From an uncultured Deinococcales bacterium (GTDB lineage: Bacteria > Deinococcota > Deinococci > Deinococcales > JAAFIG01): a stretch of 17,423 nt of DNA. Below the pieces are notes generated by a model that was not told the DNA's origin, searched no databases, and saw only the letters and a program-made list of their open reading frames with translations. Location of the stretch: positions 1 through 17,423 of the forward strand of contig CAXTKV010000108.1 in assembly GCA_964244895.1 (NCBI GenBank), given 5' to 3'. Position numbers and translations under genes: made by a program. This document shows, in pieces, positions 1-17,122 of this stretch (the first letter of the stretch is position 1; each line of letters opens with the position of its first letter).

Positions 1-495
1 ACGCCGCCGCCAGCTCCGGTCGTCACCACCACGCCGCCCGCCCCGACCCCGCCGGTCGATCTGACCCCGCCGCCCCCGCCGCCAGCACCCCGCGTGCCGA
101 ACTTCACCATCGGTCTGGGCGTGTCCACGCCCGTCGTGCCGAACTTCAACCTGAACAACCTGCAAGTCGCCGGTTACGTCGGATTGCGCCGCCTCGTCGG
201 GCCGATCGGTCTGCGCGCCAACTTCGATTACAACCTGACCAGCGGAACGCTCTCGCTCGGGCCTGACCTGATCTTCGAGATCGCCCCGACGAGCTTCCTC
301 GATCCGTACCTGGGTCTGGGTGCTGGCGGCGTCTTCGGCGTCCAGGACAGCCTGTTCGTGCGCGGTGTCGCCGGAATCAACCTGAACTTCAGCCCCGCCA
401 TCGGCCTGTGGCTCGAGGCCGACCCGAGGTACTTCATCCTCAACTCGACCGGCTTCACTTTCAGCGTCCGCGCTGGCCTGAAGCTTTCGCTCTGA
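1..495 (+). CDS. 3' part of an outer-membrane/S-layer-associated protein: Pro/Thr-rich linker followed by a small beta-barrel domain (5' truncated)
   Basis: Frame 1 is open from base 1 (TPPPAPVVTTTPPAPTPPVDLTPPPPPPAPRVPNFTIGLG...). Alternating hydrophobic beta-strands follow (PYLGLGAG, LWLEADPRY), ending in RAGLKLSL-stop. Confidence 0.7.
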   Translation, partial: TPPPAPVVTTTPPAPTPPVDLTPPPPPPAPRVPNFTIGLGVSTPVVPNFNLNNLQVAGYVGLRRLVGPIGLRANFDYNLTSGTLSLGPDLIFEIAPTSFLDPYLGLGAGGVFGVQDSLFVRGVAGINLNFSPAIGLWLEADPRYFILNSTGFTFSVRAGLKLSL

Positions 496-515
496 CCGAG
501 CGATAGTACGATTTA

Positions 516-556
516 CGTCCCAGACGGTGTATTTTTTGAATACACCGTCTGGGACG
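516..556. repeat. Palindromic intergenic repeat copy 1 (perfect 18-bp inverted doublet), probably also a terminator
   Basis: CGTCCCAGACGGTGTATT (516-533), loop TTTTG, AATACACCGTCTGGGACG (539-556); 20 nt after the stop codon at 495. Confidence 0.85.
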
Positions 557-636
557 CACTTTTATGGCAGAATGCAGCATTGCGCATCCTGCCATTTTCG
601 GGTTTTACATGGCGCGGATCGGGTAGGCTCGAACCC

Positions 637-1386
637 ATGAACAACCTGATCACCGTCGCCTTCGACGGTTCGCGACACGCGATCCACGCAGCGCTGCTGG
701 CCAGCGAAATCGCGTCGCGCACCGGCGCGAGGCTCGAGGCGGTCTTCGTCGAGGAACCCCACGGCCTGTTGGACGCGGTACGGCGCGCCGCGCCAGCCGC
801 GTCGCTCGCAGCCGCCCGCGCGACCTTACGAGAAATTCAGCCTGAGCTCGAGTTGCAGGTGCTGCGCGGCAAGCTCGAAGCCGAACTGATCCGCCTGTCG
901 CGCGATGTCGGTTTGCTGGCGCTCGGTTCGGCTGGACTGCGTCAGGAACGCGCCGGAGACGAGGATCAGATCGACGTGCGGGTCGCCAAAATCGTCTCGA
1001 ATGCCCACGCCCCGATCCTGATTGCCCCCGCAAAACCGCCGAGAATTCAGCGGATTCGACTGGCCTACAGCGCCCCTTCGGGCAAGGCCATCGCGGCTGC
1101 GGCGGATTTCGCGCGCGCCACCGGCTGGCCGCTCATCGTCAGCCTGTTGCCCGACGATGACGCTTCGACTGACGAGGGTGAACGCTCCGTGCACGCCCTG
1201 GAGGTGCTCGAGGATCACGGCATCACGGACGCGCTGGTGGCCTACGCGCGCGGTCGGAGTTTGCTGGAAGGACTTCGAGCCTGTGCGACCCCCGGCGACA
1301 TTCTGGTGCTGTCCGGCGAGGATTTCGGATCGCTCATACACGCGATTGGGGCGCTCGGCTTGCCGGTCATCGCCGTCGGAGAATAA
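637..1386 (+). CDS. Universal stress protein (tandem USP-like domains)
   Basis: N-terminal ITVAFDGSRHAIHA...A..IA...GARL..VFV, LLALGSAG and APILI are typical USP motifs. ATG 637 is preceded by the -10 box TAGGCT (624-629). Confidence 0.8.
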   Translation: MNNLITVAFDGSRHAIHAALLASEIASRTGARLEAVFVEEPHGLLDAVRRAAPAASLAAARATLREIQPELELQVLRGKLEAELIRLSRDVGLLALGSAGLRQERAGDEDQIDVRVAKIVSNAHAPILIAPAKPPRIQRIRLAYSAPSGKAIAAAADFARATGWPLIVSLLPDDDASTDEGERSVHALEVLEDHGITDALVAYARGRSLLEGLRACATPGDILVLSGEDFGSLIHAIGALGLPVIAVGE

Positions 1387-1520
1387 CTGGCGCGGCTCGA
1401 GGATCGTCTCGGCTTGATGGCGCGGCCTCGGTGCTCTCGGCGGTTCAGAACGAGCCGTATTCGAAAAATCACTCGAGTGCACCCGAAGCGCTCGATTCGC
1501 ACCGTGGCCTGCGCACGCCC

Positions 1521-2885
1521 TCAGGTGCGCAAACTGGAGGGCGTCTCGAGGCTGCGCCTTCCGGCGAACAACTGCACGAGCGCCTCTGAGAGCGCGTCGG
1601 GTTCGTGTTGACCGCCGCCGGAGTCCGTCAGGTGCGCGCCTCGAAGTTGAATTCCGGCAGCCCGGAACGCGGCAGCGTCCACGATGGCGGGTTCGGCCTC
1701 TTCGGCGCGGTAGCGTTCCAAGGTCGCGTTTGAAATCGGCGCGGTGTTGACCAGCACCACATCCGGCCTGCGGCCCAGGTGGGACTCGAGCGCCCTGACG
1801 TGATCCAGAGCGCTCATGCCGTCCGTCTCTCCGGCTTCCGTCATGATGTTGACCACGTAGACGAGCTTCGCGGACGACCCGCAGATGGCCGCCCCGACCT
1901 CCGGCACGAGCAACGGCGGAATCACGCTCGAGTACAGGCTGCCGGGGCCGACCACGATCAACTCCGCGTCCCGAATCGCGCCCAGCGCTTGCGGCATGGC
2001 GGGCAGGGCGGGCGGGTCGAGCTTTAAGCGCTGAATGCGGCTGCGGCTGGCGCGGTCGCGCAGGTTGCTCTCGCCGACGACGCGGGTTCCATCCTCGAGT
2101 TCCGCGACCAGCACGGCGGCGGCGCTGGTCGCGGGAATCACCTGCCCGCGCACCTGAAGGATCGTGTTGACCGCCAACGTCGCCTCGGCGAAATCGCCGC
2201 GCTCTTCACTGAGCGTCGCCAGCAGCAGGTTGCCGAAGGTATGCCCCTCGAGCCCCTCGCCGCGCGCGAAACGGTGCGTCAGCAAACTGGCCAGCAAGGG
2301 CGATTCGGAGAGCGCCGCGTAACAATCCGTCAGATCGCCCGGCGCGGGCATGCCGAGCGCCTCGCGCAAGCGCCCGCTCGAGCCGCCGTCGTCGGTCACG
2401 GCCACGATGGCCGTTAGGTTGGAAGAAAAGCGCTTCAGGCCAAAGAGCAGGTTTGAAAGCCCCGTTCCACCGCCGATGGCGACGATGCGCGCCCCACGGC
2501 TGAGGTTGCGCCTGGAATAAATCGTGTCGAGCGTCTCGAGCGGTTGGGCTCCGATGGCCCGCAGGATCGAACGGTTCAGACCGACGATGCCCGTCCAGAC
2601 CACGCCGACGCCCGCGACCAACAGTAGCGCGCCCGTGATCCAGCTCGGCCAGCGACCCGGAATCAGGCTGCCGACGCTCTCGGTGACTTCCGCAAAAAAC
2701 GCCCGCCACGGCCCGACGCGACCGAAGTGAAAGAAGCCGATCATCAACGAGGCCAACCCGACCGCGATCAAGGCGGCGTACCGTTTGACGCCCATCCCCG
2801 GCACCAGCCAGCGCCAACGCTCGAGCACCCGACCGAGCTTGGTGCTGCGGTCGAGGACCGGCAAGACCAGCGCGCGGCGGGCCAT
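1521..2885 (-). CDS. yvcK: YvcK/GlmR family UDP-GlcNAc-binding gluconeogenesis factor, long form with N-terminal transmembrane segments
   Basis: Motifs IVAIGGGTGLS, VTDDGGSSGRLR, PGD, GHTFGNL, GPGSLYSS, NIMTEAGET. ATG at 2885 overlaps the rapZ stop (TGATG). Confidence 0.92.
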   Translation of the reverse strand: MARRALVLPVLDRSTKLGRVLERWRWLVPGMGVKRYAALIAVGLASLMIGFFHFGRVGPWRAFFAEVTESVGSLIPGRWPSWITGALLLVAGVGVVWTGIVGLNRSILRAIGAQPLETLDTIYSRRNLSRGARIVAIGGGTGLSNLLFGLKRFSSNLTAIVAVTDDGGSSGRLREALGMPAPGDLTDCYAALSESPLLASLLTHRFARGEGLEGHTFGNLLLATLSEERGDFAEATLAVNTILQVRGQVIPATSAAAVLVAELEDGTRVVGESNLRDRASRSRIQRLKLDPPALPAMPQALGAIRDAELIVVGPGSLYSSVIPPLLVPEVGAAICGSSAKLVYVVNIMTEAGETDGMSALDHVRALESHLGRRPDVVLVNTAPISNATLERYRAEEAEPAIVDAAAFRAAGIQLRGAHLTDSGGGQHEPDALSEALVQLFAGRRSLETPSSLRT

Positions 2886-3724
2886 CAGGGGCCACCCTCG
2901 CCCTTCTCGATATCGCGGTGATCCGTCAGCACTGTACCGAAACGTGAGAGGTCGAGCGCCAGGGCCTCGACGACCGCGACGCTGCGGTGTCGCCCACCGG
3001 TGCACCCGATCGCGACCGTGTAGCTCGAGCGACCCGCGTGAACCGCGAGCGCCAGCGTGGCCATCACGAACGATTTCAGGTCGTGATAGTACGCGTTGCC
3101 CTCGCTCGAGAAGACGTGATCGCGCACGTCGGATTCCAGACCGGACTTGGCGCGCAAGGATTCCACCCAGTACGGGTTGGGCAGCCCGCGCACGTCCAGC
3201 ACCATGTCCGCATCGCGCGGCGCGCCGTGCTTGAAGCCGAAGGAAAACAAGCGCACCGTGAACGCCGCGCTGCTGGAAAAAAGCTTCCTGAGTTCATCCA
3301 CCAGGTCTTTCGGGGCGTAATGCGACGTGTCCAAAACCACGCTCGAGATCGCGCGGAAGGGCTCCAGCACGGTGCGTTCCTCGCGAATATCGACCAGCAG
3401 GGAACTCGCGTGGATCGGGTGCGAACGCCGCGTCAGGCCGTAACGCCGGATCAGGATGTCGTCGTCCGCGTCCAGGTACACGACTTCCGGGCGCACTTCC
3501 AATGCCCGCACGAACTCCGGGATGTCCTCCAGAAATTCCCTGGTGCGCGCGTCCGTCACGACCGCCAGCTTCATCACGCCGCGCGACTGGCACAACGCCA
3601 GCGTTTCCCGCCAGAGTTGCGGCGGCAGGTTGTCCACGGTGAAGAACCCGAATTCTTCCAGGGCGTGCAGCGCGGTCATCTTGCCCGCACCGGAGAGTCC
3701 CGTCACGATCACGAAGCGTTCCAT
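2885..3724 (-). CDS. rapZ: RNase adapter RapZ (YvcJ) P-loop protein
   Basis: Motifs VTGLSGAGK, VDNLPP, TRRSHP, SFGFKHG, DVRGLPNPYW, AIGCTGGRHRSV. Confidence 0.95.
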   Translation of the reverse strand: MERFVIVTGLSGAGKMTALHALEEFGFFTVDNLPPQLWRETLALCQSRGVMKLAVVTDARTREFLEDIPEFVRALEVRPEVVYLDADDDILIRRYGLTRRSHPIHASSLLVDIREERTVLEPFRAISSVVLDTSHYAPKDLVDELRKLFSSSAAFTVRLFSFGFKHGAPRDADMVLDVRGLPNPYWVESLRAKSGLESDVRDHVFSSEGNAYYHDLKSFVMATLALAVHAGRSSYTVAIGCTGGRHRSVAVVEALALDLSRFGTVLTDHRDIEKGEGGP

Positions 3725-3833
3725 CAGTCACGAGTCTATCGAAATACGCCTCGGAGCGCCGTGCGATCCGTGCGCGGCCCGTGGTGCCCTCGCGTTCGAA
3801 GCGACTTGAGTCGGTTGGCTGCGGTTGGCGTGC

Positions 3834-3863
3834 AAAAAAACCGTCCCAGACGCAAAGGGACGG
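3834..3863 (-). terminator. Intrinsic terminator on the minus strand, built from a repeat-family unit
   Basis: Minus strand reads CCGTCCC-TTTGCGTCT-GGGACGG followed by T7. Confidence 0.65.
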
Positions 3864-4019
3864 GGCTCCCATCAATTGATCTCATCTGGGACGATCTTTG
3901 CCTCGCGTCACAATGATCGACTGCGAGGCGTCTCGAGCACGGCAGCTTGCAAACCTGCCCCCACGAGATTCCGTGCCCTGGGGGGCGACGGCTCGAGCAA
4001 CTCAAGATTCAACACCATG

Positions 4020-4069
4020 GGAACACCGTCCAGCACACACATTCTTATTCGCGCGCAGGACGGTGTTCC
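4020..4069. repeat. Palindromic intergenic repeat (inverted doublet)
   Basis: GGAACACCGTCC (4020-4031) ... GGACGGTGTTCC (4058-4069), abutting the stop codon at 4072. Confidence 0.85.
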
Positions 4070-4071
4070 GG

Positions 4072-5130
4072 TCAACCCAATTCCAGGCTGGAGGCGTCAG
4101 AGAGGATCAAACGGTGCACCTTCGGGATGCGTTCGTGACCCTTGACGGTGGCGCGGCGACCGATCAGGCATTCTTGAAGGCGCACCGGAATTTCTTCCAG
4201 CACCGCCTCCTCTTCGATCACGCTGAACTCGAGTTCTACCTTCTTCAAGCGGGCGTTCGCGCCGATGCTGGTGAACGGCCCGACGTACACTCCTTCCAGC
4301 ACCGCTCCGGGGCCGATCAGGGCTGGCCCGATGATCGTCGAATCGCGCACGATCGCGCCCTCGTCGATGCGCACCCGCCCGACCAGCCTCGAGTTGATGG
4401 ATTCGCCCTTAACGACGGGTTCGATGCCTTCCAAAATCAGGCGGTTCGCGTCCAGCAGATCAGCCGGGCGCCCGGTGTCCTTCCACCAGCCTTCGACCTC
4501 GACACCGCGCACGACGCCGTCCTGCATCAGTCCGGTGATCGCGTCGGTGATCTCGTACTCGCCGCGAGCGGACGGTTTCAGGTCCGCGATCACGTCCAGA
4601 ATTCGATTCTTGAAGCAGTAAATGCCCGCCACGGCCAGGTCGGACGGCGGCTCTTTGGGCTTCTCCACCAGTTTCACGATCCGACCAGAGTCGTCCAGCA
4701 CGGCCACACCGAACTCGCGCGGGTTGGCCACGCGCACCAGCCCGATGACCGCATCGCAGGGGTTCTGCGAGAAATCCTCGACGTAACGCCGCACGCCCGT
4801 CTCGAATAAATTGTCCGCCAGGTAAACGCAAAAATCCTGGCCATCCAGCCATTCTCTGGCCTGCCCGACGGCGTGCGCGATGCCGAGCTGGTCTTTTTGG
4901 AGGATCAGTTTGAGGCTCACACCCGGAATCTCGAGCCCTTCGGATTCGAGCGCGGCCCGCACGGGTTCGGAGACGATCAATCCGATATCGGTGATGCCCG
5001 CATCGCGCAGGTTCTCGATGGCGTAGGCGATGATCGGCTTGTTGGCCACGTTCAAGAGCGGTTTTGGGCGGGTGTACGTCAGTGGTCGCAGGCGCGTCCC
5101 CAGGCCCGCCGCCGGAATCAATCCCTTCAT
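4072..5130 (-). CDS. Glucose-1-phosphate thymidylyltransferase, long form with left-handed beta-helix C-terminus
   Basis: MKGLIPAAGLGTRLRPLTYTRPKPL, LVEKPKEPPSDLA, PSARGEYEITDAI, WWKDTG, plus hexapeptide repeats. SD GAGGTG precedes ATG 5130. Confidence 0.9.
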   Translation of the reverse strand: MKGLIPAAGLGTRLRPLTYTRPKPLLNVANKPIIAYAIENLRDAGITDIGLIVSEPVRAALESEGLEIPGVSLKLILQKDQLGIAHAVGQAREWLDGQDFCVYLADNLFETGVRRYVEDFSQNPCDAVIGLVRVANPREFGVAVLDDSGRIVKLVEKPKEPPSDLAVAGIYCFKNRILDVIADLKPSARGEYEITDAITGLMQDGVVRGVEVEGWWKDTGRPADLLDANRLILEGIEPVVKGESINSRLVGRVRIDEGAIVRDSTIIGPALIGPGAVLEGVYVGPFTSIGANARLKKVELEFSVIEEEAVLEEIPVRLQECLIGRRATVKGHERIPKVHRLILSDASSLELG

Positions 5131-5139
5131 GCTCACCTC

Positions 5140-5169
5140 GTGTTCGTTCTGAACTGTGTTCGTTCTGAA
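5140..5169. repeat. 14-bp direct repeat in the leader of the thymidylyltransferase gene
   Basis: GTGTTCGTTCTGAA at 5140-5153 and 5156-5169. Confidence 0.8.
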
Positions 5170-5386
5170 ATCCCGACGTAGCTCCGCGCACAGTCGGTTG
5201 TCGACTCGCTTTTGATTCCTCGAAAACGAACCGTCTCGGGCTCGAGATCGGCGTTTCGGCTTCAGAATCGCACGTTCAGATGAAGCTAGCACGCGATATC
5301 AAAGCCACCCGCCGGAAATCCTCACGTGAAGCCGTCAGCCGCAAGCCGCGAGCGAGATCGCCGCAAGCGGGGCGCTCGAGGCGAAA

Positions 5387-5980
5387 TTACAACTTCTTCG
5401 GGCTGCGCAACACCTGAAGGCCGCGCAACAGCATGGCTGCAGCCATCAGCAAAAGCGGCCAGACGACGGCACCGTAACGCCACCAGGAGAGCGCGATACC
5501 GATCGGCAAAACGGTGCCGCCCGCGAAGGGTTGAGCGTTCAGTCGAACGAAGCGTTTGAGCTTGAACAGCCTGTGCAATCCCATCAACGCGAAACCGAGC
5601 GCGACGCACGGCAGGATCACGACGGGCGAGATCGCCAGCATCGCGCCGAACATCGGTACCAGCCCCTGACCGCCGTTGAACCCGAAAAACACCGGCCAGC
5701 AGTGACCGAGAACCACCATCGACGGCACGAACCAGACCAACTCAGGCGCGAGCATCCGCACCACCCAGACGGCCAGCGCACCTTTGCCCAGATCCAACGC
5801 GATGATCAGCGCGCCCACGCCCCAACCGAATTGCCGGATCATGCCGGACGCGCCCGGCGCGTCGCTGCCGCGCACATCGCGGCCCAGGAATCTGGAGATC
5901 AGCACCCCAAAGGACACCGACCCGATCAGGTACGCCAGCACCAGCGAGACGACGCCGAGGAATACCGGATTCTGGATCAC
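5387..5980 (-). CDS. PlsY-like glycerol-3-phosphate acyltransferase family membrane protein (divergent)
   Basis: AYLIGSVSFG, DLGKG and GHCWPVFFGFNGGQG motifs with multiple TM helices. GTG 5980 lies 6 nt after the -10 box TACAAT. Confidence 0.8.
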   Translation of the reverse strand: MIQNPVFLGVVSLVLAYLIGSVSFGVLISRFLGRDVRGSDAPGASGMIRQFGWGVGALIIALDLGKGALAVWVVRMLAPELVWFVPSMVVLGHCWPVFFGFNGGQGLVPMFGAMLAISPVVILPCVALGFALMGLHRLFKLKRFVRLNAQPFAGGTVLPIGIALSWWRYGAVVWPLLLMAAAMLLRGLQVLRSPKKL

Positions 5981-6188
5981 ACCCCGATTGTACAGAGCGT
6001 CCCGAAGCTGAGCCTCGTGCCGCCTTCGGTGCGCTCGATTTGCGCTCGCAACCTGAGCCGAATGAAGCCGCGCCATCATCCGGGACACACCGCGCGATGT
6101 CAGGCTCGAGAAAAGTTGGGCTCGAGCGCAGCGTCGCGAGCAAAGCCTCGAGCCGTGCGGCTCGCCTCGGGCTGAAGGGAGAATCGAG

Positions 6189-6563
6189 TTGAAGCCAAAG
6201 CACTTCTTGATCGGTGCGTTTGCGGCGGGCGGATTGTTCTTCTTGCTGAACGCCTGCAACGCGCCCATTCCGACCGTCGCGGCCTGCACGGCCACGATTC
6301 AGGCGCAATCTCAGGATAACGCTAAGGGCCTGAAAAACGCGTACCTGCCCGCCGCTTGCACCCTGAAGTTGAACGGCAGCCCGAAAACCGTCACGATCCA
6401 GGGTTCGTTTCAGCATCCGTTCAGCACCTCGAGCGGTTCCTGGCCGACCTTGAGCGCCAGCAGCACGAGCGATCAAGTCGTGACCTTCACCAAGCCCGGC
6501 AGTTACGGTTTCATCTGCGGCAACCACACCGAGATGGTCGGCGTGATCAATGTCGAAAACTAG
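6189..6563 (+). CDS. Cupredoxin (blue copper) lipoprotein A
   Basis: Lipobox LNAC. Type-1 Cu ligands H (QHPF) and C-x2-H-x2-M (FTKPGSYGFICGNHTEMVGVINV). TTG start after AAGGGAG. Confidence 0.8.
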   Translation: MKPKHFLIGAFAAGGLFFLLNACNAPIPTVAACTATIQAQSQDNAKGLKNAYLPAACTLKLNGSPKTVTIQGSFQHPFSTSSGSWPTLSASSTSDQVVTFTKPGSYGFICGNHTEMVGVINVEN

Positions 6564-6613
6564 GGATCACCGCGGGGCGCGACGATGGTTTACTCGAGGT
6601 GAAGGGGGTCATC

Positions 6614-6988
6614 ATGAATATCAAGCAGATTGGAGTGGGCACCGCGACGGTCGCGGGATTGTTTTTCTTGTTGAACGCGTGCGGTAGTGCGCCCGTCACA
6701 CCACCCGCAGCCACCGCCTGCGGGACAAAGATTGCGGCTGGTACCGCCGCCGCGAACGTGTACGTCCCGGCGGACTGCCAGATCACGCTGGGCGGATCGT
6801 CGAAAACGCTCACGATCGAGGGATCTGCCGTGCACCCGTTGGATTCGGTCTCGAGCAACTGGCCGAGCGCGATTGCCGCAGCGCAAACGGATCAGGCCGT
6901 CACTTTCACGGCAGCCGGGGTCTACACCTTCAAGTGCCACGTTCACGGTGGATTCGGCATGACGGGCAAAATCACCGTGGTGAACTAG
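6614..6988 (+). CDS. Cupredoxin (blue copper) lipoprotein B, paralog of A
   Basis: Lipobox LNAC. Ligands H (VHPL) and C-x2-H-x4-M (FTAAGVYTFKCHVHGGFGMTGKITV). ATG 6614 after AAGGGGG. Confidence 0.85.
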   Translation: MNIKQIGVGTATVAGLFFLLNACGSAPVTPPAATACGTKIAAGTAAANVYVPADCQITLGGSSKTLTIEGSAVHPLDSVSSNWPSAIAAAQTDQAVTFTAAGVYTFKCHVHGGFGMTGKITVVN

Positions 6989-7047
6989 AACACCGTCCGG
7001 GACGCGTATTTTAAATCTCGAGAAACACCGTCCTGGACGGTGTTTCT
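6988..7047. repeat. Palindromic intergenic repeats: a half unit plus a perfect 27-nt palindrome
   Basis: GAACACCGTCCGGGACGCG (6988-7006); AGAAACACCGTCC-T-GGACGGTGTTTCT (7021-7047). Confidence 0.9.
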
Positions 7048-7095
7048 TATTTTTGAACGACCTTGCCATCCTCGCCAGAAGGGTAGTATGACCGG

Positions 7096-8688
7096 ATGCG
7101 CGCGCTCAAGCCAGACCGGACCATCGTTCAGTCCAACATCATCACGCTCGATCCGGGCGCAGCTCGAGCCGAGGCCGCGCTGTGCGAGAGCGGTACGATT
7201 CTGGCGGTCGGAGGCTTTCAGGAAATCCGGGCGCTCGAGCCCGCTGCAACCATTCTGGACAGGCGCGGGCGCAGCCTGACACCCGGATTGACGGACGCGC
7301 ACATTCATCTGGTCGGGTACGGGTTCTCGCTCTCGAACGTGAATCTGGAAGGCACGCAAAGCGTGGCGGAGGCCGTAGGGCGCATCCAGGAGCGCGCGGC
7401 GAGAACACCGCCCGGCGCGTGGTTGCTCGGCTCTGGCTTTGACCGCAGCCGATGGGGGCTCGAGGGTTATCCAACGGCGTCCTGGCTCGACGCGATCGCA
7501 CCCGACCGACCCGTCGCGATCCGATCCCGCGACGGTCACAGCCTGTGGGTCAACACGAACGTCATGCGGATCGCCGGGATCGACGCCAGCACACCCGACC
7601 CAGACGGTGGTCTGATCGTCCGCGACGAGCGTGGCGACCCAACTGGCACGCTCCTGGAAAACGCCATGAACCTGGTCAAGCGCGTCATCCCCGATCCGCC
7701 CTTCGAAACCGTCCTGGAGGCCGCCCGCGCGGGGGCGAACGACATGGCCTCGCGCGGCTTCACGGCGGTTCACACGATGGCGCTCGAACCACCGGAGTAC
7801 CTGCGGGCCGTAATGGAACTCGAGGCTCGCGGTCAGCTGCCGTTGCGCGTCTGGGCCTGCGTGCCGCACGCGCAACTCGAGAACATCGCCGCAGCGGGGT
7901 TGCGCGGCGGGGCGCGCACGGGCTCGAGGCGCGATTTCGCGCGGGTCGAGATCGCGGGCATCAAGTTCTTCACCGATGGCGCGCTCGGCTCGCGCACCGC
8001 CTGGATGCTCGATCCCTACGATGGCTACCCATCGCAGACGGGCGTGATGGTGGATTCACCGCAGACGATCCTGGAGCGCGGGCGCTGGGCGCTCGAGCTG
8101 GGCTTCTCGCCGGTGGTTCACGCCATCGGGGATCGCGCCAACCGCGAGGTGCTGAACGTGTTCCAGGAACTCAAACCCCTGGCGGACGCGCGCGGCATCC
8201 GCTTGCGTTTGGAGCACGCGCAGCACCTGCACCCGGACGACATCTCGCGCTTCGGCGAGTTGGGCATCGTCGCCAGCGTGCAACCGATCCACGTGCCCGG
8301 CGATGTGCTGAACATCGAGCGGTTGCTCGGCCCGGAGCGCGCCGCCAGCACCTACGCCTTCCGCAGCCTGATCCAGTCTGGCGCGACGCTGGCGCTCGGA
8401 TCGGACGCCGCGGTCGCCACGCCCGACCCGATTCAGGGCTTCCGGGCCGCCGTCGAGCGCCTGGATCTGAACGGTGACCCGTGGCGGGCTGAACAGGCCC
8501 TGACCCGCGCCGAGACGCTGGCCGGGTACACGACCGGCGCGGCGATGGCGGCGGGTTGGGAGGGCTGGTACGGGCAGGTCTCGCCCGGTTACGCGGCAGA
8601 TTTCACCGTCTGGGACGCCGACCCGACGCTCGAGCCCGCGAAGCCCATCGAGGCTTTGCGCATCACGCCGTCGGGTCATTCCGTATAG
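7096..8688 (+). CDS. YtcJ-like metal-dependent amidohydrolase (Amidohydro_3)
   Basis: Motifs PGLTDAHIH, DGHSLWVN, IKFFTDGALGSRTA, HAIGDRA, RLEHAQ, GSDA, ADFTV. -10 box TAGTAT 6 nt before the ATG. Confidence 0.9.
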   Translation: MRALKPDRTIVQSNIITLDPGAARAEAALCESGTILAVGGFQEIRALEPAATILDRRGRSLTPGLTDAHIHLVGYGFSLSNVNLEGTQSVAEAVGRIQERAARTPPGAWLLGSGFDRSRWGLEGYPTASWLDAIAPDRPVAIRSRDGHSLWVNTNVMRIAGIDASTPDPDGGLIVRDERGDPTGTLLENAMNLVKRVIPDPPFETVLEAARAGANDMASRGFTAVHTMALEPPEYLRAVMELEARGQLPLRVWACVPHAQLENIAAAGLRGGARTGSRRDFARVEIAGIKFFTDGALGSRTAWMLDPYDGYPSQTGVMVDSPQTILERGRWALELGFSPVVHAIGDRANREVLNVFQELKPLADARGIRLRLEHAQHLHPDDISRFGELGIVASVQPIHVPGDVLNIERLLGPERAASTYAFRSLIQSGATLALGSDAAVATPDPIQGFRAAVERLDLNGDPWRAEQALTRAETLAGYTTGAAMAAGWEGWYGQVSPGYAADFTVWDADPTLEPAKPIEALRITPSGHSV

Positions 8689-8695
8689 CCTTCAG

Positions 8696-8749: not shown

Positions 8750-8794
8750 CTTTTCAGGCGTGCATTCCGGCTGGCGGGTCGTATACTCTGGCTC

Positions 8795-9247: not shown

Positions 9248-9383
9248 GGGCGCGGTCGACGGTCAGGGATCAGGGGTCAATTCGACATCCCGATCTTTGC
9301 CAATCGCGCCTCCAGCGAACGCGGGTCGCAGCGGTTCGGTTCTGGCGGGCTCGAGACGCTGGCTCCAGCTCGAGCCCTGAACC

Positions 9384-9719
9384 GTGACACGGCGTTTCAC
9401 GGTTCAGGGCACGAACGAGCCCTTCACCTGCGCGCACTGCGGCGTGCTCGTCCCGCCCCTGCTGAACGGGTCGGTGCGGAACCACTGCCCCGCGTGCCTG
9501 TGGAGCCTTCACGTGGACGAATTTCCCGGCGACCGCGCCAGCGATTGCGGCGGCTCGCTCGAGCCGGTCGGCGTGGAGCATTCGGGCAAGAAGGGTTGGG
9601 TGATCGTTCACCGTTGCCAGTCTTGCGGTGCGACGCGCAAGAACAAGGCGGCGCTGGACGATCCGGTCATGCCGGACAATTTTGATCTGATCGTGCAGCT
9701 CTCCAGTTTCAAAAAGTAA
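9384..9719 (+). CDS. RNHCP domain-containing protein (putative zinc-binding)
   Basis: FTCAHCG, RNHCPACLWSLHVD..PGDRASDCGG, HRCQSCG. Confidence 0.9.
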   Translation: MTRRFTVQGTNEPFTCAHCGVLVPPLLNGSVRNHCPACLWSLHVDEFPGDRASDCGGSLEPVGVEHSGKKGWVIVHRCQSCGATRKNKAALDDPVMPDNFDLIVQLSSFKK

Positions 9720-9773
9720 TTCTCGAGAACACCGTGTGGGACGGTGTTCTCGAGAATGCGTCCAGGACGGTGC
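9719..9773. repeat. Palindromic intergenic repeats filling the gap between convergent genes; likely bidirectional terminator
   Basis: ATTCTCGAGAACACCGT-GTGGG-ACGGTGTTCTCGAGAAT (9719-9757, 17-bp arms), then GCGTCCAGGACGGTGC (9758-9773). Confidence 0.9.
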
Positions 9774-10181
9774 TCAGGCCTTCGGCGGTTCCACGACGTA
9801 GACGGTATCGCCGTACAGGTCGCGGAAGGTCATGTCGCGGCCCCAGGGCATCTGGTTGATCTCCCGGATAATCACTGAGCCGTGTTCCTCGAGGCGTTTG
9901 TGCAGGTCATCCAGGTCGTCGGTCGAGAGGATCAGTTGGGCTTGCTTGCCGATCTGAGAAAGCGCGAATTCGCGGGCTTCTGGGGTTTCCATCCAGGCGG
10001 TGGGGTTGTACAGCACGAGCTCGAAGTTCTTCTGGTTCGGCAGGCAGATGGTCAGCCAGCGCCTTCCTGGCCCCATCGAGTTGTCGGTGTGAAGCTCGAA
10101 GCCCAGCACGTCGCGGTAGTACGCGAGGGCTTCGTCTTCGTTGCGGACGTAACGGGTGACGTGCGTGACGGCGGTGATCAT
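9774..10181 (-). CDS. VOC/glyoxalase/bleomycin-resistance family protein
   Basis: MITAVTHVTRYVRNEDEALAYYRDVLGF, RWLT, MPWGRDMTFRDLYG. SD AGGAGG. Confidence 0.88.
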   Translation of the reverse strand: MITAVTHVTRYVRNEDEALAYYRDVLGFELHTDNSMGPGRRWLTICLPNQKNFELVLYNPTAWMETPEAREFALSQIGKQAQLILSTDDLDDLHKRLEEHGSVIIREINQMPWGRDMTFRDLYGDTVYVVEPPKA

Positions 10182-10233
10182 GGTCGTTCCTCCTGGTGGA
10201 TTGTGATGCTCAATTCTATCCGAAGTTCCAGGT

Positions 10234-10262
10234 TTGACGCAATAAGCAGGTTTAATTATGCT
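10234..10262 (+). promoter_or_regulatory. Sigma70-type promoter TTGACG-17-TATGCT
   Basis: TTGACG 10234-10239, 17-nt spacer, TATGCT 10257-10262. Back-to-back with a minus-strand -10 TAGAAT (10213-10218) for the VOC gene. Confidence 0.55.
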
Positions 10263-10382
10263 CCCGACAGATCAGTTTCAGGTCAGCATTTCCAGCATCA
10301 CCCAGCAATCTCGGACTGCTGACCGGAGCGATTTCCCGGCGCGAACGAGCCTTCCCAGCCGCACCCTGTTAGAATCCATCTC

Positions 10383-10892
10383 ATGCAGACGCTCGCAAAC
10401 GGAAGCCTCGCGCCAGAATTCACGGCGACGGACCTCGACGGCAACACGCTGGATCTCAAGACCGCGCTGGCGGCAGCGCCCACCATCGTGACCTTCGCGC
10501 ACCCGTTGGTCAACGCCTCCAGGCTGGTCGTGGGGTACTTGCGGCGCATGAAAGACATCGCGCCCAGCGTGCCCGTCTGGGTGATCTCGGAGGGCACGGA
10601 GGCCGAAACCCGCAAGTACGTCGGCGAGGGCGACGCGAAATACCTCGAGATGCCCGTCGTGCAGGACAACTGCGCGGTCGCCAGCCTGTACGCCACCACT
10701 TACCTGCCGACCACATACCTGATCGGGCAGGACGGCAAGATCATCCGGGGCTACACCGGTTTCAACCGGGATTTCCTGAACCTGATCGCCGACCAGGCCG
10801 CCACCTTGACGGGCGGCAAACCCAAAGAATTGATCGCGGACGGCGACAACAAGGGCTTCTACGAACTGGCCGAACGCGGCCCGTGCAAGTGA
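10383..10892 (+). CDS. AhpC/TSA-TlpA-like thioredoxin-fold protein lacking the CxxC motif
   Basis: GSLAPEFTATDLDG, VASLY...LPTTYLIGQDGKI. -10 box TAGAAT 7 nt before the ATG. Confidence 0.8.
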   Translation: MQTLANGSLAPEFTATDLDGNTLDLKTALAAAPTIVTFAHPLVNASRLVVGYLRRMKDIAPSVPVWVISEGTEAETRKYVGEGDAKYLEMPVVQDNCAVASLYATTYLPTTYLIGQDGKIIRGYTGFNRDFLNLIADQAATLTGGKPKELIADGDNKGFYELAERGPCK

Positions 10893-11066
10893 ATGCTCGG
10901 CGGTATTCTGGGTGGCTTACTGATCGTTTCCGGCATCGCGGTGCTGGCCTTGCTGCGTTTCGTCAGGATTGAATCTCAACGGCGCGTGCTGATGATCGCC
11001 GCCGGATTTGACCTTCTGGTGGGTGTTCTGGCGGTCGGCCTGGGAATGACTGGGGTTCTGCGATAA
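10893..11066 (+). CDS. Small 57-aa two-helix membrane protein (absent from the ORF track)
   Basis: MLGGILGGLLIVSGIAVLALLRFVRIESQRRVLMIAAGFDLLVGVLAVGLGMTGVLR*. The ATG directly abuts the upstream TGA, and the ORF fills the gap up to the next repeat. Confidence 0.7.
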   Translation: MLGGILGGLLIVSGIAVLALLRFVRIESQRRVLMIAAGFDLLVGVLAVGLGMTGVLR

Positions 11067-11082
11067 AAGCTTGAACCGTGGG

Positions 11083-11140
11083 AACACCGTCCCAGACGGT
11101 GTTTTCTTGCTTCAAAGAAAGCCGTGCCGAACGGTGTTCT
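11083..11140. repeat. Palindromic intergenic repeats (two units)
   Basis: AACACCGTC-CCA-GACGGTGTT (11083-11103); AGAAAGCCGTGCCGAACGGTGTTCT (11116-11140). Confidence 0.85.
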
Positions 11141-11172
11141 CTCGAGTCGAGACCCGAGCGCTAGACTCGAGC

Positions 11173-11775
11173 ATGGTCGTGTCGTGGCTGCTCACTGCGT
11201 TCGTGGTCTTCCAGCTCGGCATTCGCGCGTGGTTGCGCATCCGACCGCAAGCCATCCCTTACGGCTGGACGTGGTTGCTCGAGAACCCGTGGCGCAGGCG
11301 CTACCGCGACCCGGAACGAACCGTTTCCACCTATGGCATCGCGCCTTCGGACGCGGTGCTCGAGATCGGCGCGGGTTCGGGATTGTTCTCAAAGGCGCTC
11401 GCCGCGTCGTGCGCGCGCTTGATCGTCTCGGACATCGAAGCGCGCTACCTCGAGGACGCGAAGGCCAAAACCGAGGGCTCACGGAACGTCGAGTTCATCG
11501 TCGCGGATGCGTGCGCGCTGCCGTTGCCGGACGCGAGCGTCAATCTGGTCGTGATGATCAGCGTCCTGCCGGAGATTCCCACACCGACGCTCGCCCTGCG
11601 CGAGGCCGCGCGCGTCCTGAAGTCCGGCGGTCGGATCATCGTCAGCCAGGAACTGTTCGAGCCGGAGTACGTCCTGCCCGCCACCACGGATGCCTGGGCC
11701 GCCCGAGCGGGTCTCAGGGTGATCAGCAAAACCGGCGATTGGTGGATCTACACGCACCAGTACGCAGCGCGCTGA
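11173..11775 (+). CDS. Class I SAM-dependent methyltransferase with N-terminal hydrophobic anchor
   Basis: VLEIGAGSGLF, ADACALPLPDASVNLV, ALREAARVLKSGGRI. ATG 11173 lies 5 nt after TAGACT. Confidence 0.85.
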   Translation: MVVSWLLTAFVVFQLGIRAWLRIRPQAIPYGWTWLLENPWRRRYRDPERTVSTYGIAPSDAVLEIGAGSGLFSKALAASCARLIVSDIEARYLEDAKAKTEGSRNVEFIVADACALPLPDASVNLVVMISVLPEIPTPTLALREAARVLKSGGRIIVSQELFEPEYVLPATTDAWAARAGLRVISKTGDWWIYTHQYAAR

Positions 11776-11782
11776 TGCGCCG

Positions 11783-11832
11783 AAAACACCGTCCGGGACG
11801 CGCGATTTAATTCGCGTGCTGAACGGTCTTCT
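11783..11832. repeat. Palindromic intergenic repeat (inverted doublet, degenerate right arm)
   Basis: AAAACACCGTCCGGGACGCG ... CGCGTGCTGAACGGTCTTCT, 7 nt after the stop codon. Confidence 0.75.
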
Positions 11833-12012
11833 CGAGCAAGCGCCATGAATCGGGCTCGAGATTCACAGGCTGCACGGTTCTCTCTGGCGCAACGAGACGG
11901 TCTGCGGCGCGAAATCCGCGTCCGAGCGCGCGAGCCTGAGCGCGCCGGACGGCTTTCGTGTACACTCTGCCCTCGAATAGCGGCCCTGAAATCGGTCGCG
12001 GGAGTTGTTTTC

Positions 12013-13626
12013 ATGCAAAAGGTCGCCATCGTCGGACGCCCCAACGTGGGCAAATCGAGCCTCTTCAACCGCCTGATCGGCAAACGCGCCGCCGTCGTGG
12101 CGGACGAACCGGGCGTCACGCGCGATGTCAAAGAATCCGTGATGCTCTACGAAAACCACCGGATGCTGTTGATGGACACGGGCGGTTTGTGGTCCGGCGA
12201 CGAGTGGGAAACCAAGATTCTGGAAAAGGCAGAAATGGCGATCGAGGATTGCGAGGTCGTGATCTTCACCGTGGATGCGCGCACGGAACTGAGCAGCGCC
12301 GACCAGGAGATCGCGGCCTGGTTGCGGCGGCTCGGCAAACCGGTCGTGCTGGCGGCCACCAAGATCGATACCACCAAGCAAGAGGCGCTCTTGCCGGAAC
12401 TCTACGCGCTGGGTTTCGGCGATCCGATGCCGACCAGCGCCGAGCACGGTCGCGGCCTGGACGAACTGATGGATCGCGTGCTGGAACTGCTGCCCGAGGA
12501 CACCGAGGACATCACGACCATCCAGCCGATCCGGGTCGCGCTGATCGGTCGCCCGAACGTCGGCAAATCCAGCCTGCTGAACGCCATCACGGGCTCTGAG
12601 CGCGTGATCGTGTCCGAAATCGCGGGCACCACCCGAGACGCCATCGACATCGAGTTCGCTTTCGCGGGCAGGCGTGTCGGGCTGGTGGACACGGCGTGCA
12701 TCCGGCGGAAACCGAAAGACCACATCGAGTTCTTCAGCCAGCAGCGCTCGGAGCGCGCGATTCACGAATCGGACGTGATCTTGCTGGTGATCGACCCGTT
12801 TGAACTGGGCGATCACGAGATCAAACTGGCCAACATGGCCTACGAGGCGGGCAAACCCGTGATCATCGTGGTCAACAAGTGGGATCTGGTGACGGATGAC
12901 GAACTGAAGGCCAAAACCCGCGAGATCGACGAGAAACTGCACCACCTCGAGTTCGCGCCGCGCACGTACACCAGCGCCATCAACGATTACGGCATCCACG
13001 ATCTGCTGGCCGAAGCCACCAAGCTCTACACGCTCTGGCAGACGCGCGTGCCGACCGGCGATCTGAACCGTTGGCTCGAGGTCTGGCAGATGCGTCAGGC
13101 CGTGCCGAACTTCAAGGGCCGACCGTTGAAGATGTACTACATGACGCAGGCGGAGATTGCGCCGCCGACCTTCGTGATTTTCTGCAACCGCAAGGATTTC
13201 ATCACGCGCGCTTACGAAGGTTTCCTGAAGAACCGCATCCGCGAGGACTTGGGGTTGCAGGGCATCCCGGTGCGGTTGGTCTACCGCGAGAAAGGGCCGT
13301 ACAAGACCCGTTCCGACCGCGACCGCGAGGCGCACGAAGCGATGGATCAGGATGACGCGCCGCGATCCGAACGCGCCACCGCTCGAGCCGAGAAAACCGG
13401 GGCGCTCAAGGCCGGGCCTGAAAAAGCCAGCGCGGTGAAGACGGGTTCCGAAAAAGTCAGTGCGGTGAAGGCCGGGACAGTGAAGACTGGAACTGCGAAG
13501 GCCGGAGCTGCGAAAGCTCGAGCCACCACTGGAGCCGCGAAAACAGCGACCAGAAAGCCCGCGAGCTCGAAATCTGGTTCCTCGAGAAGCAAACGCACCG
13601 CCAGCCCGACCCGCACACGGCGCTGA
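12013..13626 (+). CDS. der: Ribosome biogenesis GTPase Der (EngA) with a basic low-complexity C-terminal extension
   Basis: Two G domains (GRPNVGKS twice, GVTRD/GTTRD, DTGG, NKWD) and a KH-like domain (PPTFVIF, LKNRIRE). SD GGGAG. Confidence 0.95.
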   Translation: MQKVAIVGRPNVGKSSLFNRLIGKRAAVVADEPGVTRDVKESVMLYENHRMLLMDTGGLWSGDEWETKILEKAEMAIEDCEVVIFTVDARTELSSADQEIAAWLRRLGKPVVLAATKIDTTKQEALLPELYALGFGDPMPTSAEHGRGLDELMDRVLELLPEDTEDITTIQPIRVALIGRPNVGKSSLLNAITGSERVIVSEIAGTTRDAIDIEFAFAGRRVGLVDTACIRRKPKDHIEFFSQQRSERAIHESDVILLVIDPFELGDHEIKLANMAYEAGKPVIIVVNKWDLVTDDELKAKTREIDEKLHHLEFAPRTYTSAINDYGIHDLLAEATKLYTLWQTRVPTGDLNRWLEVWQMRQAVPNFKGRPLKMYYMTQAEIAPPTFVIFCNRKDFITRAYEGFLKNRIREDLGLQGIPVRLVYREKGPYKTRSDRDREAHEAMDQDDAPRSERATARAEKTGALKAGPEKASAVKTGSEKVSAVKAGTVKTGTAKAGAAKARATTGAAKTATRKPASSKSGSSRSKRTASPTRTRR

Positions 13627-13650
13627 TCTGAACCGAGTTGATATCAGGGG

Positions 13651-13694
13651 ACACCGTCCAGCACGCATGTTCAATCTCGCGTGCTGGACGGTGT
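13651..13694. repeat. Palindromic intergenic repeat (perfect 16-bp inverted doublet) followed by a T-tract; probable der terminator
   Basis: ACACCGTCCAGCACGC (13651-13666), 12-nt loop, GCGTGCTGGACGGTGT (13679-13694), then TTTT. Confidence 0.85.
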
Positions 13695-13728
13695 TTTTAA
13701 ATTCCAGTCCGATCATTCTCAACTCATA

Positions 13729-13749
13729 CTTGAGTCCGATCCGCTCACA
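13729..13749. promoter_or_regulatory. Possible HAIR (HspR operator)
   Basis: CTTGAGT-CCGATCC-GCTCACA versus consensus CTTGAGT-N7-ACTCAAG: left half perfect, right half 4/7. Confidence 0.45.
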
Positions 13750-13765
13750 TCTCCTTCCAAGCCCC

Positions 13766-13795
13766 TTGACTGAATCCTGAAAGTGTCCATATACT
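13766..13795 (+). promoter_or_regulatory. groESL sigma70-type promoter
   Basis: TTGACT (13766-13771), 18-nt spacer, TATACT (13790-13795). Confidence 0.7.
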
Positions 13796-13805
13796 CTTCG
13801 ACGGA

Positions 13806-13832
13806 TTGGCACTCGCAACGTTCGAGTGCTAA
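13806..13832. promoter_or_regulatory. CIRCE element (HrcA operator)
   Basis: TTGGCACTC-GCAACGTTC-GAGTGCTAA; one mismatch to TTAGCACTC-N9-GAGTGCTAA. Confidence 0.92.
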
Positions 13833-13863
13833 TGAGCCACTCAGAAGTTCAAAGGAGGATCGC

Positions 13864-14169
13864 ATGGCCGCAACCGCAGTCAAGGTCAAGCCCCTGGGCG
13901 ACCGCATCGTGATCGAAGTCATCGAGGAATCAGAGCAGAAGACCGCCAGCGGCCTGTACGTGCCCGACACCGCCAAGGAGAAATCCCAGCGCGGCAAGGT
14001 CATCGCCATCGGCAGCGGCAAGACGCTCGACAACGGCACCAAGCTCGCACTCGAGGTCAAGGTCGGCGACACCGTCTACTTCGCCAAGTACGGCGGCACG
14101 GAAGTCAGCCTGGAGGGCAAGGATTACACGATCCTCTCCGAGCGCGACATCCTCGCGGTGATCGGTTAA
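13864..14169 (+). CDS. groES: Co-chaperonin GroES
   Basis: [59 protein letters not shown] before ATG 13864. Confidence 0.97.
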
Positions 14170-15937
<1,768 letters not shown>

Positions 15938-15995
15938 ACCCCGGCGCAAGCGGGTTCATCCCGCTTCCGGAGTGAGGGCTCGAGCACTCGAGTCG

Positions 15996-16028
15996 AACGA
16001 GGTTGGGATTTTCCCAACCTCGTTTTTT
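15996..16028 (+). terminator. Rho-independent terminator of groESL
   Basis: AACGAGGTTGGGA-TTT-TCCCAACCTCGTT followed by TTTT. Confidence 0.9.
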
Positions 16029-16099
16029 GATGTCTCCAATTCGAGCCGCATCCGCACCCGACGCACCCTGAGACAGTCTCGCAATGCGATTGCACCGTC

Positions 16100-16156
16100 A
16101 CATCGTCCCAGACGCATCGTCAGATGCTCAAATTAGGCGTCCTGGACGGTGTTCTC
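16100..16156. repeat. Palindromic intergenic repeat (inverted doublet)
   Basis: ACATCGTCCCAGACGC (16100-16115) ... GCGTCCTGGACGGTGTTCTC (16137-16156). Confidence 0.8.
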
Positions 16157-16251
16157 GGGACGCGAAAGCCAGAACACTCGAAGCCCACCAAACCATTCGT
16201 TTGTGTCGCGCCTGACCCACACCGCGCCCGGAAACGGTATCCTGCCCGCAC

Positions 16252-17049
16252 ATGAACCCGCGCTTCGCGCCCGCCACGCGCCTCGTCTGGACACCCGGCG
16301 TGCTGGGCTCGCTCGAGACCATCGCCCGTCACGGTTTTCATTCCAGCGAAGTCTGGGCGCAGCACCTCTGGGAAAGCGAAATCAGCCCGGAACGGGTCGC
16401 GCAACGCGCCCGAGAACTCGGGTTGACCCTCAGTTTGCACGCGCCCAGCTACGACCTCAATCCGCTCTCCAGCAACCCGGAAGTGCGCGCCGTCTCGCGG
16501 CGTCAGGTGCTCGAATCCCTCGAGACCGCCGCGACTATTCTCGCAAAAATGGTGGTGGTTCATCCCGGCGCGCTGTCATCGACCACCGACAACCCCGAAG
16601 AATACTGGGCCAGGCTCGAGGAATACGCCGTCCTCCTGAACCAACGCGCGACCGAGTTGGGTTTGCGCGTCGGCATCGAAGCGATGGAAAAAAAGCGCCT
16701 TCAGTTCGTGACCGACCTGGACGCGCTGGATCGGCTGGCGGGCATCCTCGAGAACAACCACCTCGAGCGCACCGGCATCGCGCTGGACGTAGCCCACGCC
16801 GCGACCATCGGCGATCCGCTGGAATTCATCCAACGCGCACCGCGCATCGTTCACGCGCACCTCTCGGATTCCAGTCCGTCCAAGACGCACGCGCTGATGG
16901 GCGAGGGCAACCTGAACCTGACCGCGATCATCCCCGCGTTGCTGGAACGCTTGCAGCACGCGCCCGGATTGATCGCCATCGAAGGACGGCACGCGCCCGA
17001 CGAGGAACACGCGCTCGAGCAGGCGCGGATTGTTCTCGAGAAGTATTAA
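16252..17049 (+). CDS. Sugar phosphate isomerase/epimerase (xylose isomerase-like/AP endonuclease 2 TIM barrel)
   Basis: SLHAP..DLNPLS, VVVHPG, IEAM, LDVAHA, HAHLSD, H...GEGNL, IE metal ligands. Confidence 0.85.
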   Translation: MNPRFAPATRLVWTPGVLGSLETIARHGFHSSEVWAQHLWESEISPERVAQRARELGLTLSLHAPSYDLNPLSSNPEVRAVSRRQVLESLETAATILAKMVVVHPGALSSTTDNPEEYWARLEEYAVLLNQRATELGLRVGIEAMEKKRLQFVTDLDALDRLAGILENNHLERTGIALDVAHAATIGDPLEFIQRAPRIVHAHLSDSSPSKTHALMGEGNLNLTAIIPALLERLQHAPGLIAIEGRHAPDEEHALEQARIVLEKY

Positions 17050-17122
17050 GCACCTCAGATAGCTCAGATATCTTCGGCAGGAGCATCGTTCTACACGGTG
17101 TATTGGTTGTCTCGACAGTGGG

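Follow-up and report, generated by a model that had tools for sequence, protein, structure and literature searches.

The window and its CTCGAG sites

The stretch of DNA analysed here (the window, 17,423 nucleotides) is contig C108 in the assembly of an uncultured Deinococcales bacterium, and the element in question is the palindromic hexamer CTCGAG, which occurs in it exactly 74 times between positions 412 and 17040. The genes of the window are ordinary core genes: yvcK/cofD-like, rapZ, a nucleotidyl transferase gene, plsY, two cupredoxin genes, an amidohydrolase gene, der, groES and groEL, with boundaries taken from open reading frames (ORFs) and Pfam matches. A previous reading of the window from its letters alone (the sequence-only reading) had taken CTCGAG for the mark of a system like the highly iterated palindromes (HIPs) of cyanobacteria, and this is borne out by the genome and its relatives: the word is iterated genome-wide and family-wide, and the pressure on it acts on DNA rather than via codon use.

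The count of 74 made in that reading is exact at every coordinate, and its zero-order expectation of roughly 6 is also right. Dinucleotide-preserving shuffles of the window give a mean of 8.95 copies and a largest value of 17, and none of the 200 shuffles reaches 74. By context, the copies divide into 38 in-frame CTC-GAG (Leu-Glu), 5 frame-1, 12 frame-2 and 19 non-coding ones; the non-coding DNA amounts to ~3.0 kb and carries 6.2 copies/kb versus 3.8/kb in coding DNA. The features of the window are the following, where a plus sign denotes the forward strand and no strand is assigned to the others.

412..17040: the set of 74 bare CTCGAG hexamers, from the count and the gene boundaries
6105..6152: three CTCGAG (6105, 6121, 6147) in the intergenic spacer between the plsY and cupredoxin genes
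7163..7168 (+): frame-1 CTCGAG, read as GCT CGA GCC, in the amidohydrolase gene
9350..9374: two CTCGAG (9350, 9369) in the intergenic spacer between the GNAT and RNHCP genes
9722..9754: short hairpin of a repeat resembling repetitive extragenic palindromes (REP), core AACACCGT...ACGGTGTT, with a CTCGAG closing each side
512-560, 9722-9754 and 13655-13700: the window's copies of this REP-like hairpin repeat
13382..13387 (+): frame-1 CTCGAG, read as GCT CGA GCC, in der (GTPase)
13517..13522 (+): frame-1 CTCGAG, read as GCT CGA GCC, in der
14330..15583 (+): four in-frame Leu-Glu CTCGAG within groEL (14330, 15206, 15338, 15578)
15979..15992: two CTCGAG (15979, 15987), 8 bases apart, directly after the groEL stop and ahead of a terminator-like hairpin and T run
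17041..17423: tail devoid of CTCGAG, 46.7% GC, orphan toxin-type C-terminal cassette, likely acquired DNA

The three GCT CGA GCC sites at 7163, 13382 and 13517 are as the sequence-only reading described them, and so are three of the clusters it called intergenic (6105/6121/6147, 9350/9369 and 15979/15987). The other two are only partly so: at 11831/11855 the first site is intergenic while the second lies in the first codons of der, and the pair 11141/11166 is inside the long ORF of an S-adenosylmethionine-dependent methyltransferase, where it may lie upstream of the true start.

The same reading had pointed to the absence of the word from the low-GC end of the window. The composition (46.7% GC) and the absence are confirmed, but the tail comprises only 383 bases, in which the genome mean predicts 1.6 sites, and its emptiness is thus weak evidence when taken alone. 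On the forward strand it contains a stop-bounded frame (17063-17389, 46.7% GC) in which a Hint-like end (MYNLTVETAHTFFVGEGRWLVHN) precedes ~75 residues that match no Pfam family. This frame looks like a C-terminal cassette of a polymorphic toxin, orphaned and truncated where the contig ends.

CTCGAG in the genome and in its relatives

The assembly comprises 5.12 Mb in 328 contigs, with 62.7% GC and 91% completeness. CTCGAG occurs in it 21,883 times, one copy per 234 bases, and is the commonest of all hexamers, followed by its own overlaps GCTCGA/TCGAGC and then by CGCGCC. The observed/expected ratio is 12.8 in a zero-order, 9.1 in a first-order and 9.8 in a second-order Markov model. It falls to 1.25 in the maximal-order model, which is no refutation, since the pentamers used there are themselves dominated by CTCGAG. 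Among the 64 palindromic hexamers this is the sole strongly enriched one, the second being GAATTC with a ratio of 3.4, and many others, GC-rich ones among them, are strongly avoided (CGGCCG with 30 copies, CCCGGG with 60, ACTAGT with 10 and GAGCTC with 568). The positions flanking CTCGAG are near the background composition throughout the genome, and therefore the unit is the bare hexamer; a longer motif hidden around it is ruled out.

The coding excess was assessed with 3,804 genes called by a home-made codon-bias finder, which covers 77% of the genome, gives over-long starts and misses some genes. In 3,777 coding sequences the word occurs 10,529, 1,134 and 3,266 times in frames 0, 1 and 2, while within-gene shuffling of synonymous codons (20 shuffles) gives 2,923, 87 and 475, corresponding to an excess of 3.6, 13 and 6.9 times. 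Leu-Glu is the most over-used dipeptide of the proteome, with 17,732 occurrences, an observed/expected ratio of 2.14 and ~9,400 above expectation, whereas Glu-Leu stands at 0.99. CTC-GAG accounts for 10,529 of the Leu-Glu codon pairs (59%) versus 2,614 expected from the codon shares. In odds worked by hand from the codon-pair table, CTC is favoured over CTG ~20 times more strongly before GAG than elsewhere, and GAG over GAA ~8 times more strongly after CTC. The sequence-only reading had set beforehand what would refute it, namely an excess that vanishes once codon and dicodon usage and TCGA frequency are controlled for. The excess survives: the synonymous shuffles are exceeded in every frame, and on both strands CTCGAG makes up 43,766 of the 108,084 TCGA-centred hexamers (40%), the runner-up NTCGAN word having 7,461.

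Spacers are denser in the word than genes. Gaps of 20-300 bases between called genes, with 58% GC, carry 7.4-8.9 copies/kb versus 3.8/kb for genes, and by gap type the density is 10.0/kb in convergent, 8.5/kb in tandem and 5.7/kb in divergent spacers. The spacing of sites is near exponential (mean 230.6, coefficient of variation 0.96, longest gap 2,509), but it is slightly and clearly more even than in 200 simulations of a Poisson process with separate genic and non-genic rates: the coefficient of variation is 0.962 versus 1.017 +/- 0.007, there are 238 gaps above 1 kb versus 310 +/- 17, and 2,023 spacings below 30 bases versus 2,626 +/- 57. Among short spacings, CTCGAG-N-CTCGAG (spacing 7) is found in 115 pairs, versus 10 at spacing 6, which would create GAGCTC, and 26 at spacing 8.

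No contig falls below 1.6 copies/kb. Of the stretches inspected, the poorest are contig C198, which carries TniB and Mu-type transposition genes, the type I-C CRISPR-Cas contig C161, sugar-uptake operons and a low-GC island with a methylase gene (C114). The depletion in acquired DNA that the sequence-only reading had proposed to look for is thus seen, the word being scarcer in mobile and defence DNA.

The REP-like hairpin repeat has a consensus of approximately CTCGAGAACACCGTCCAGCACGC and roughly 1,000 arms in the genome, and about 420-470 copies have CTCGAG at the outer end. Only 923 of the 21,883 CTCGAG sites (4%) are beside such a core, and of 1,765 close non-coding pairs of sites 50 (3%) extend by at least 4 bases into a hairpin. 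Together with the background-like flanks, this rules out an origin of the word in REP elements, in paired REP elements (REPINs) or in hairpins generally.

The trait is shared by the whole family. All 18 other family genomes, which represent four other genera, contain between 12,028 and 35,442 copies each, at densities of 4.6-6.8/kb, and the genome of the window is the lowest of the family at 4.3/kb. The mirror word GAGCTC, which is the SacI site, has 0-25 copies in 16 of the 18 genomes, of 2.3-5.2 Mb (none in G009), while the genome of the window has 568. Twenty orthologous loci from the family span 48-62% GC, carry 4.0-8.7 CTCGAG/kb and contain no GAGCTC; as they are rich in CTCGAG across this range, the trait is independent of base composition.

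Outside the family, a phylum sample of 120 high-quality genomes, none of them from the family, contains three genera of another family of the order (f5) with 1.4-3.4 copies/kb and one further genus with ~0.9/kb. In sampled stretches of two f5 genomes, the counts in the three frames are 375/27/28 versus 118/2.3/9.9 after shuffling, with Leu-Glu at 1.45 (G042), and 346/22/46 versus 132/1.7/7.9, with Leu-Glu at 1.49 (G103). The genome G019 shows a faint form of the excess, and a control genome of the same order (G038) shows none, with 125/1/9 versus 132/0.9/2.6 and Leu-Glu at 1.05. The trait is graded across the order, from none through mild and moderate to extreme, and extends beyond the uncultured family.

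In genus g7 of the same order the word is strongly depleted, with 26-1,010 copies in 1.9-6.1 Mb (0.01-0.3/kb), so that the density within one order differs several hundred-fold. In three phage contigs from IMG/VR (L227, L228 and L235, with terminase, portal, tail and lysis genes and 66-69% GC) CTCGAG greatly outnumbers GAGCTC, in every frame as well as between genes, and the closest named relatives of these contigs among the matches listed are actinobacterial phages. They may reflect a similar word bias in another phylum, and they say nothing on the Deinococcales family, since the relatives of those inspected are actinophages.

Conservation of the sites and the probable force behind it

Five window genes were aligned to 2-9 family genomes at 55-75% protein identity, and 14 of their 24 sites are common to at least one relative. 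The word is kept in 61 of 153 site-by-genome comparisons, versus 1,289 of 11,622 (11%) for other in-frame hexamers. At the unshared sites the relatives show Ser-Glu, Leu-Ser, Leu-Arg, Leu-Ala or Val-Glu instead, and therefore some of the sites arose by amino-acid change.

Retention was followed in genus g4, of which six species were aligned over ~45 kb; their identity is 82.5-85.1% and their relationship star-like. Pairwise, 78, 71, 77 and 75% of the CTCGAG sites are retained in frames 0, 1, 2 and non-coding DNA, versus 38, 38, 38 and 43% for other hexamers; the check on site turnover that the sequence-only reading had suggested thus shows a word kept far better than others, in both comparisons. 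The changes that would destroy it silently are rare. GAG>GAA is found at 39 of 871 lineage-sites inside the word versus 83 of 575 elsewhere (p 6e-11), CTC>CTG at 7 of 895 versus 17 of 385, and third-position C>T at 5.5% versus 9.5-10.2% in CpG-matched controls, so that synonymous losses are 2-5 times rarer in CTCGAG than in matched controls. The lowered C>T also rules out a hypermutable inner C as a mark of cytosine methylation. Of the ancestral Leu-GAG pairs, CTC-GAG accounts for 895 lineage-sites and all other Leu codons for 9.

These data are probably best explained by a family-wide HIP that is maintained through a weak per-site fixation bias on the DNA word, and not by codon usage or base composition. 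New sites would arise through point mutations of the usual kind, part of which would replace other residues by Leu-Glu. An existing site would be favoured in a mutation-selection-drift model by roughly 2-3 in Ne*s units (effective population size times selection coefficient), a value obtained by taking logarithms of the odds ratios, ~8-fold for GAG after CTC and ~20-fold for CTC before GAG. The density would be set by a balance against the constraint on proteins and promoters, which fits its order: convergent spacers, then tandem, then divergent, then genes. The bias, either selection or biased gene conversion, would have its source in a putative protein that reads CTCGAG on duplex DNA.

A wider claim is held more tentatively: this may be a second, independent kind of HIP outside cyanobacteria, kept throughout the family by a methylase-independent reader of CTCGAG that would use it as a self, repair or uptake mark, and rewriting ~9,000 dipeptides per proteome.

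Several observations weigh against maintenance by such a bias. Profile and homology searches of the 91% complete assembly found no reader or writer of CTCGAG, and the data fit selection and biased gene conversion alike. None of the nine pairs of single-mismatch neighbours of the word is depleted genome-wide, TTCGAG and CTTGAG included. The home-made gene calls, with their 77% coverage and over-long starts, leave some missed genes in the DNA counted as non-genic. The genome of the window has no close kin in the set, and genus g4 was chosen for the retention analysis for that reason, so the conservation is that of relatives. In g4 site occupancy gives 154 losses versus 87 gains, and the column-majority ancestor, which is biased against gains, gives 256 versus 19. 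One-step gains are not clearly raised (9 of 478 opportunities versus an average of 1.2%), and neither is GAA>GAG after CTC (4 of 36 versus 141 of 1451). The force may conserve CTCGAG more than it creates it, or may be waning.

Methylation-linked and uptake-signal models are the two candidates that can be named for the agent of the bias. In the former, an orphan methylase would mark the CTCGAG sites, and the marks would either be functional (in replication, choice of the repair strand or regulation) or steer mismatch repair so that it both creates and preserves the word, which has been proposed for the HIPs of cyanobacteria. Such a model is possible, though rather unlikely. Table S3 of Blow et al. 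2016 (PMC4752239) gives type II N6-methyladenine (m6A) methylases that recognise cTcgAg, and lists no cognate nuclease for them, in three cultured Deinococcales, with detection at 99.5% of the sites in Meiothermus ruber, 94.1% in M. chliarophilus and 94.6% in Marinithermus hydrothermalis, and in the same source an orphan CTCGAG methylase of Nocardia is linked to clusters of sites near dnaA. Elhai 2015 (PMC4390886), in its treatment of alternate HIPs, states that a genome in which such a HIP is frequent has a methylase for it. In family f5, where the excess is milder, G042 contains a 553-residue TaqI-like methylase with no adjoining nuclease gene and with orthologues in G030 and G031.

The genome of the window offers little for such a model. 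A C5 cytosine methylase (PF00145) and a Vsr endonuclease (PF03852) gave no match in it, with controls positive. The XhoI-family nuclease (PF04555) gave no match here or in 5 other genomes, the control genomes of that search being equally silent. A free-standing TaqI-like gamma-class adenine methylase (PF07669) was not found, as the matches are only the BREX-1 PglX and HsdM. The four DNA methylases that were found were each set aside. That on C139 is the BREX-1 PglX (675 bits to NF033452) in a BREX context, its gene cut by the contig end, and that on C122 is HsdM-like (type I) in a restriction context. The beta-class enzyme on C114 adjoins a 390-residue ORF without assignment on the low-GC island, which is free of CTCGAG. 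The D12-class enzyme on C6 (30755-32664) adjoins a gene for a NotI-family nuclease (PF12183, 202 bits), a pair that would fit the near absence of CGGCCG. Among 60 genomes of the order, just two others encode a close homologue of the C114 enzyme, and just two others one of the C6 enzyme; neither enzyme is conserved in the family. The small methylases of this genome look like parts of restriction systems.

The methylase of G042 has no match in this genome, in the single-contig family genome G006 or in 11 of the 18 family genomes; its only full-length homologue within the family is in G002, at 32% identity, and no orthologue was found in the other 17. A 538-residue TaqI-like match in G006 is HsdM-like. 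A D12 methylase orthogroup of ~285 residues, no more than a lead, is common to three family genera (G013, G006, G003, G002, G015 and G016; L201-L206), with 55-70% identity and differing neighbours, and was not found in the genome of the window.

The enrichment is thus strongest where the known methylase is missing. The sequence-only reading had suggested an XhoI/PaeR7I-type system and methylation-directed repair as the origin of the word. Neither is supported here, the former for want of an XhoI match, in a search with silent controls, and of a free-standing TaqI-like methylase, and the latter with no C5 methylase or Vsr found and the small methylases in restriction contexts. Very-short-patch repair of the Dcm/Vsr type is rejected on the same two absences and on the undepleted TTCGAG and CTTGAG. 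What stands of the methylation link is the m6A methylation of the word in the three cultured Deinococcales of PMC4752239. As far as sequence tells, the methylase rule fails where the enrichment is strongest, and we therefore commit to a per-site fixation bias with a putative reader of the word.

In the uptake-signal model CTCGAG would bias DNA uptake or recombination, and fragments carrying it would spread by transformation, like the DNA uptake sequence (DUS) and the uptake signal sequence (USS). Thermus and Deinococcus are naturally competent. The over-representation in genes as well as spacers with the maximum in convergent spacers, the conservation at homologous positions, the scarcity in mobile and defence DNA and the slightly even spacing are all in line with this model, but known uptake signals have 9-12 bases and are not palindromic, a hexamer is poor at telling self, no receptor candidate emerged, with no search aimed at one, and gains are not clearly accelerated. 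We regard the model as improbable.

The sites could also be a relic of a word that was amplified in the family ancestor and is now decaying in this genome, where the force would be gone. The lowest density and the 568 copies of GAGCTC in this genome, the absence from it of the D12 orthogroup found in three other genera and the excess of losses over gains in g4 would agree with decay. Yet 59% of the Leu-Glu pairs here are still CTC-GAG, more than half of the sites in the five window genes are shared with relatives at 55-75% protein identity, and the g4 sites are protected and not decaying freely, which leaves this explanation with a small chance.

A neutral mutational or repair bias that regenerates CTCGAG at random places, without an advantage of existing sites, would account for the highest density being in the least constrained DNA and for the near-Poisson distribution along the genome. 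It would not account for a retention of sites that is 2-5 times better than that of matched synonymous controls and just as high in non-coding DNA; one-step gains are not clearly raised, neighbour words are not depleted and no Vsr-type repair gene was found in the genome, so that little credence is given to it.

That the excess is an artefact of codon usage, of a proteome rich in Leu-Glu, of GC content or of TCGA frequency is refuted and can hardly be entertained. In favour of this explanation, CTC and GAG are common codons, half of the sites are in-frame Leu-Glu and the maximal-order ratio is low. Against it stand the excess in frames 1 and 2 over the synonymous shuffles, the denser spacers, the rarity of GAGCTC, which uses the same codons for Glu-Leu, the abundance of the word from 48 to 62% GC in the family, and a control relative that has no excess although its codon use is similar (CTC 29% of Leu, GAG 78% of Glu).

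Meaning and likeness to known systems

To our knowledge, HIPs were until now a peculiarity of cyanobacteria, with no agreement on what they do. The present genome shows a phenomenon of that kind in another phylum and with another word, which is the commonest hexamer of its genome and doubles one dipeptide. The trait is graded across one order, and the CTCGAG methylation listed in PMC4752239 for three cultured Deinococcales suggests that bench work is possible; this gives both comparison and experiment a way into how such words arise and persist. If the wider claim is true, the milder form that appears to occur in culturable relatives would open a 25-year-old puzzle to experiment. The case is also a warning that word pressure at the DNA level can shape protein sequences, codon-pair statistics and composition-based binning. 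The sequence-only reading had supposed that the trait might already be known; a full-text literature search, with subscription journals and REBASE outside it, turned up no paper on how abundant CTCGAG is in Deinococcales or Meiothermus.

REP elements and bacterial interspersed mosaic elements (BIMEs) resemble the present case in that the genome holds a REP-like hairpin repeat often ending in CTCGAG, but most copies of the word here are bare hexamers inside genes.

The DUS of Neisseria and the USS of Pasteurellaceae are likewise genome-wide over-represented words, in terminator regions as well as in genes; they are conserved between species, scarcer in foreign DNA and somewhat evenly spaced. 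They differ in having 9-12 bases, in not being palindromic, in a density of ~1/kb and in a proven uptake bias, while CTCGAG is known here from sequence alone.

The orphan CTCGAG methylases of PMC4752239 concern the same word, adenine-methylated in Meiothermus and Marinithermus with no nuclease listed. What the relevant passages describe for Nocardia is local clustering near dnaA and not a genome-wide hyper-abundance, and the abundance of the word in Deinococcales is not given in them.

The alternate HIPs of PMC4390886 are lineage-specific palindromes in the role of HIP1, as CTCGAG is here, and a methylase for the word is listed in the three cultured Deinococcales. The differences from that account are that no orthologue of the G042 methylase was found here or in 17 of the 18 relatives and that no single-nucleotide neighbour is depleted. 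The rule of Elhai, as stated there, would hold for the three cultured species and fails, as far as sequence tells, in this genome and in most of the family.

HIP1 (GCGATCGC) of cyanobacteria, finally, is also a short GC-rich palindrome that is many-fold over-represented, occurs in all frames of genes and in spacers, is conserved and has no agreed function. Its conservation between genomes, within and between ORFs, is taken in PMC5861425 as evidence of selection and not of neutral replenishment. CTCGAG shares with HIPs the many-fold genome-wide excess, the occurrence in all frames and non-coding DNA beyond codon usage and the conservation between relatives. A methylase specific for the word or its core was not found in the same genome, the assembly being 91% complete and specificity not readable from sequence. 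HIP1 has a reported periodicity of 10-90 kb, and the 328 contigs here are mostly shorter than such a period. CTCGAG is a different word, a hexamer, in a different phylum; it is denser per kb than the "about one per gene" of HIP1, and it visibly reshapes the proteome, in which Leu-Glu is used 2.14 times as often as expected.

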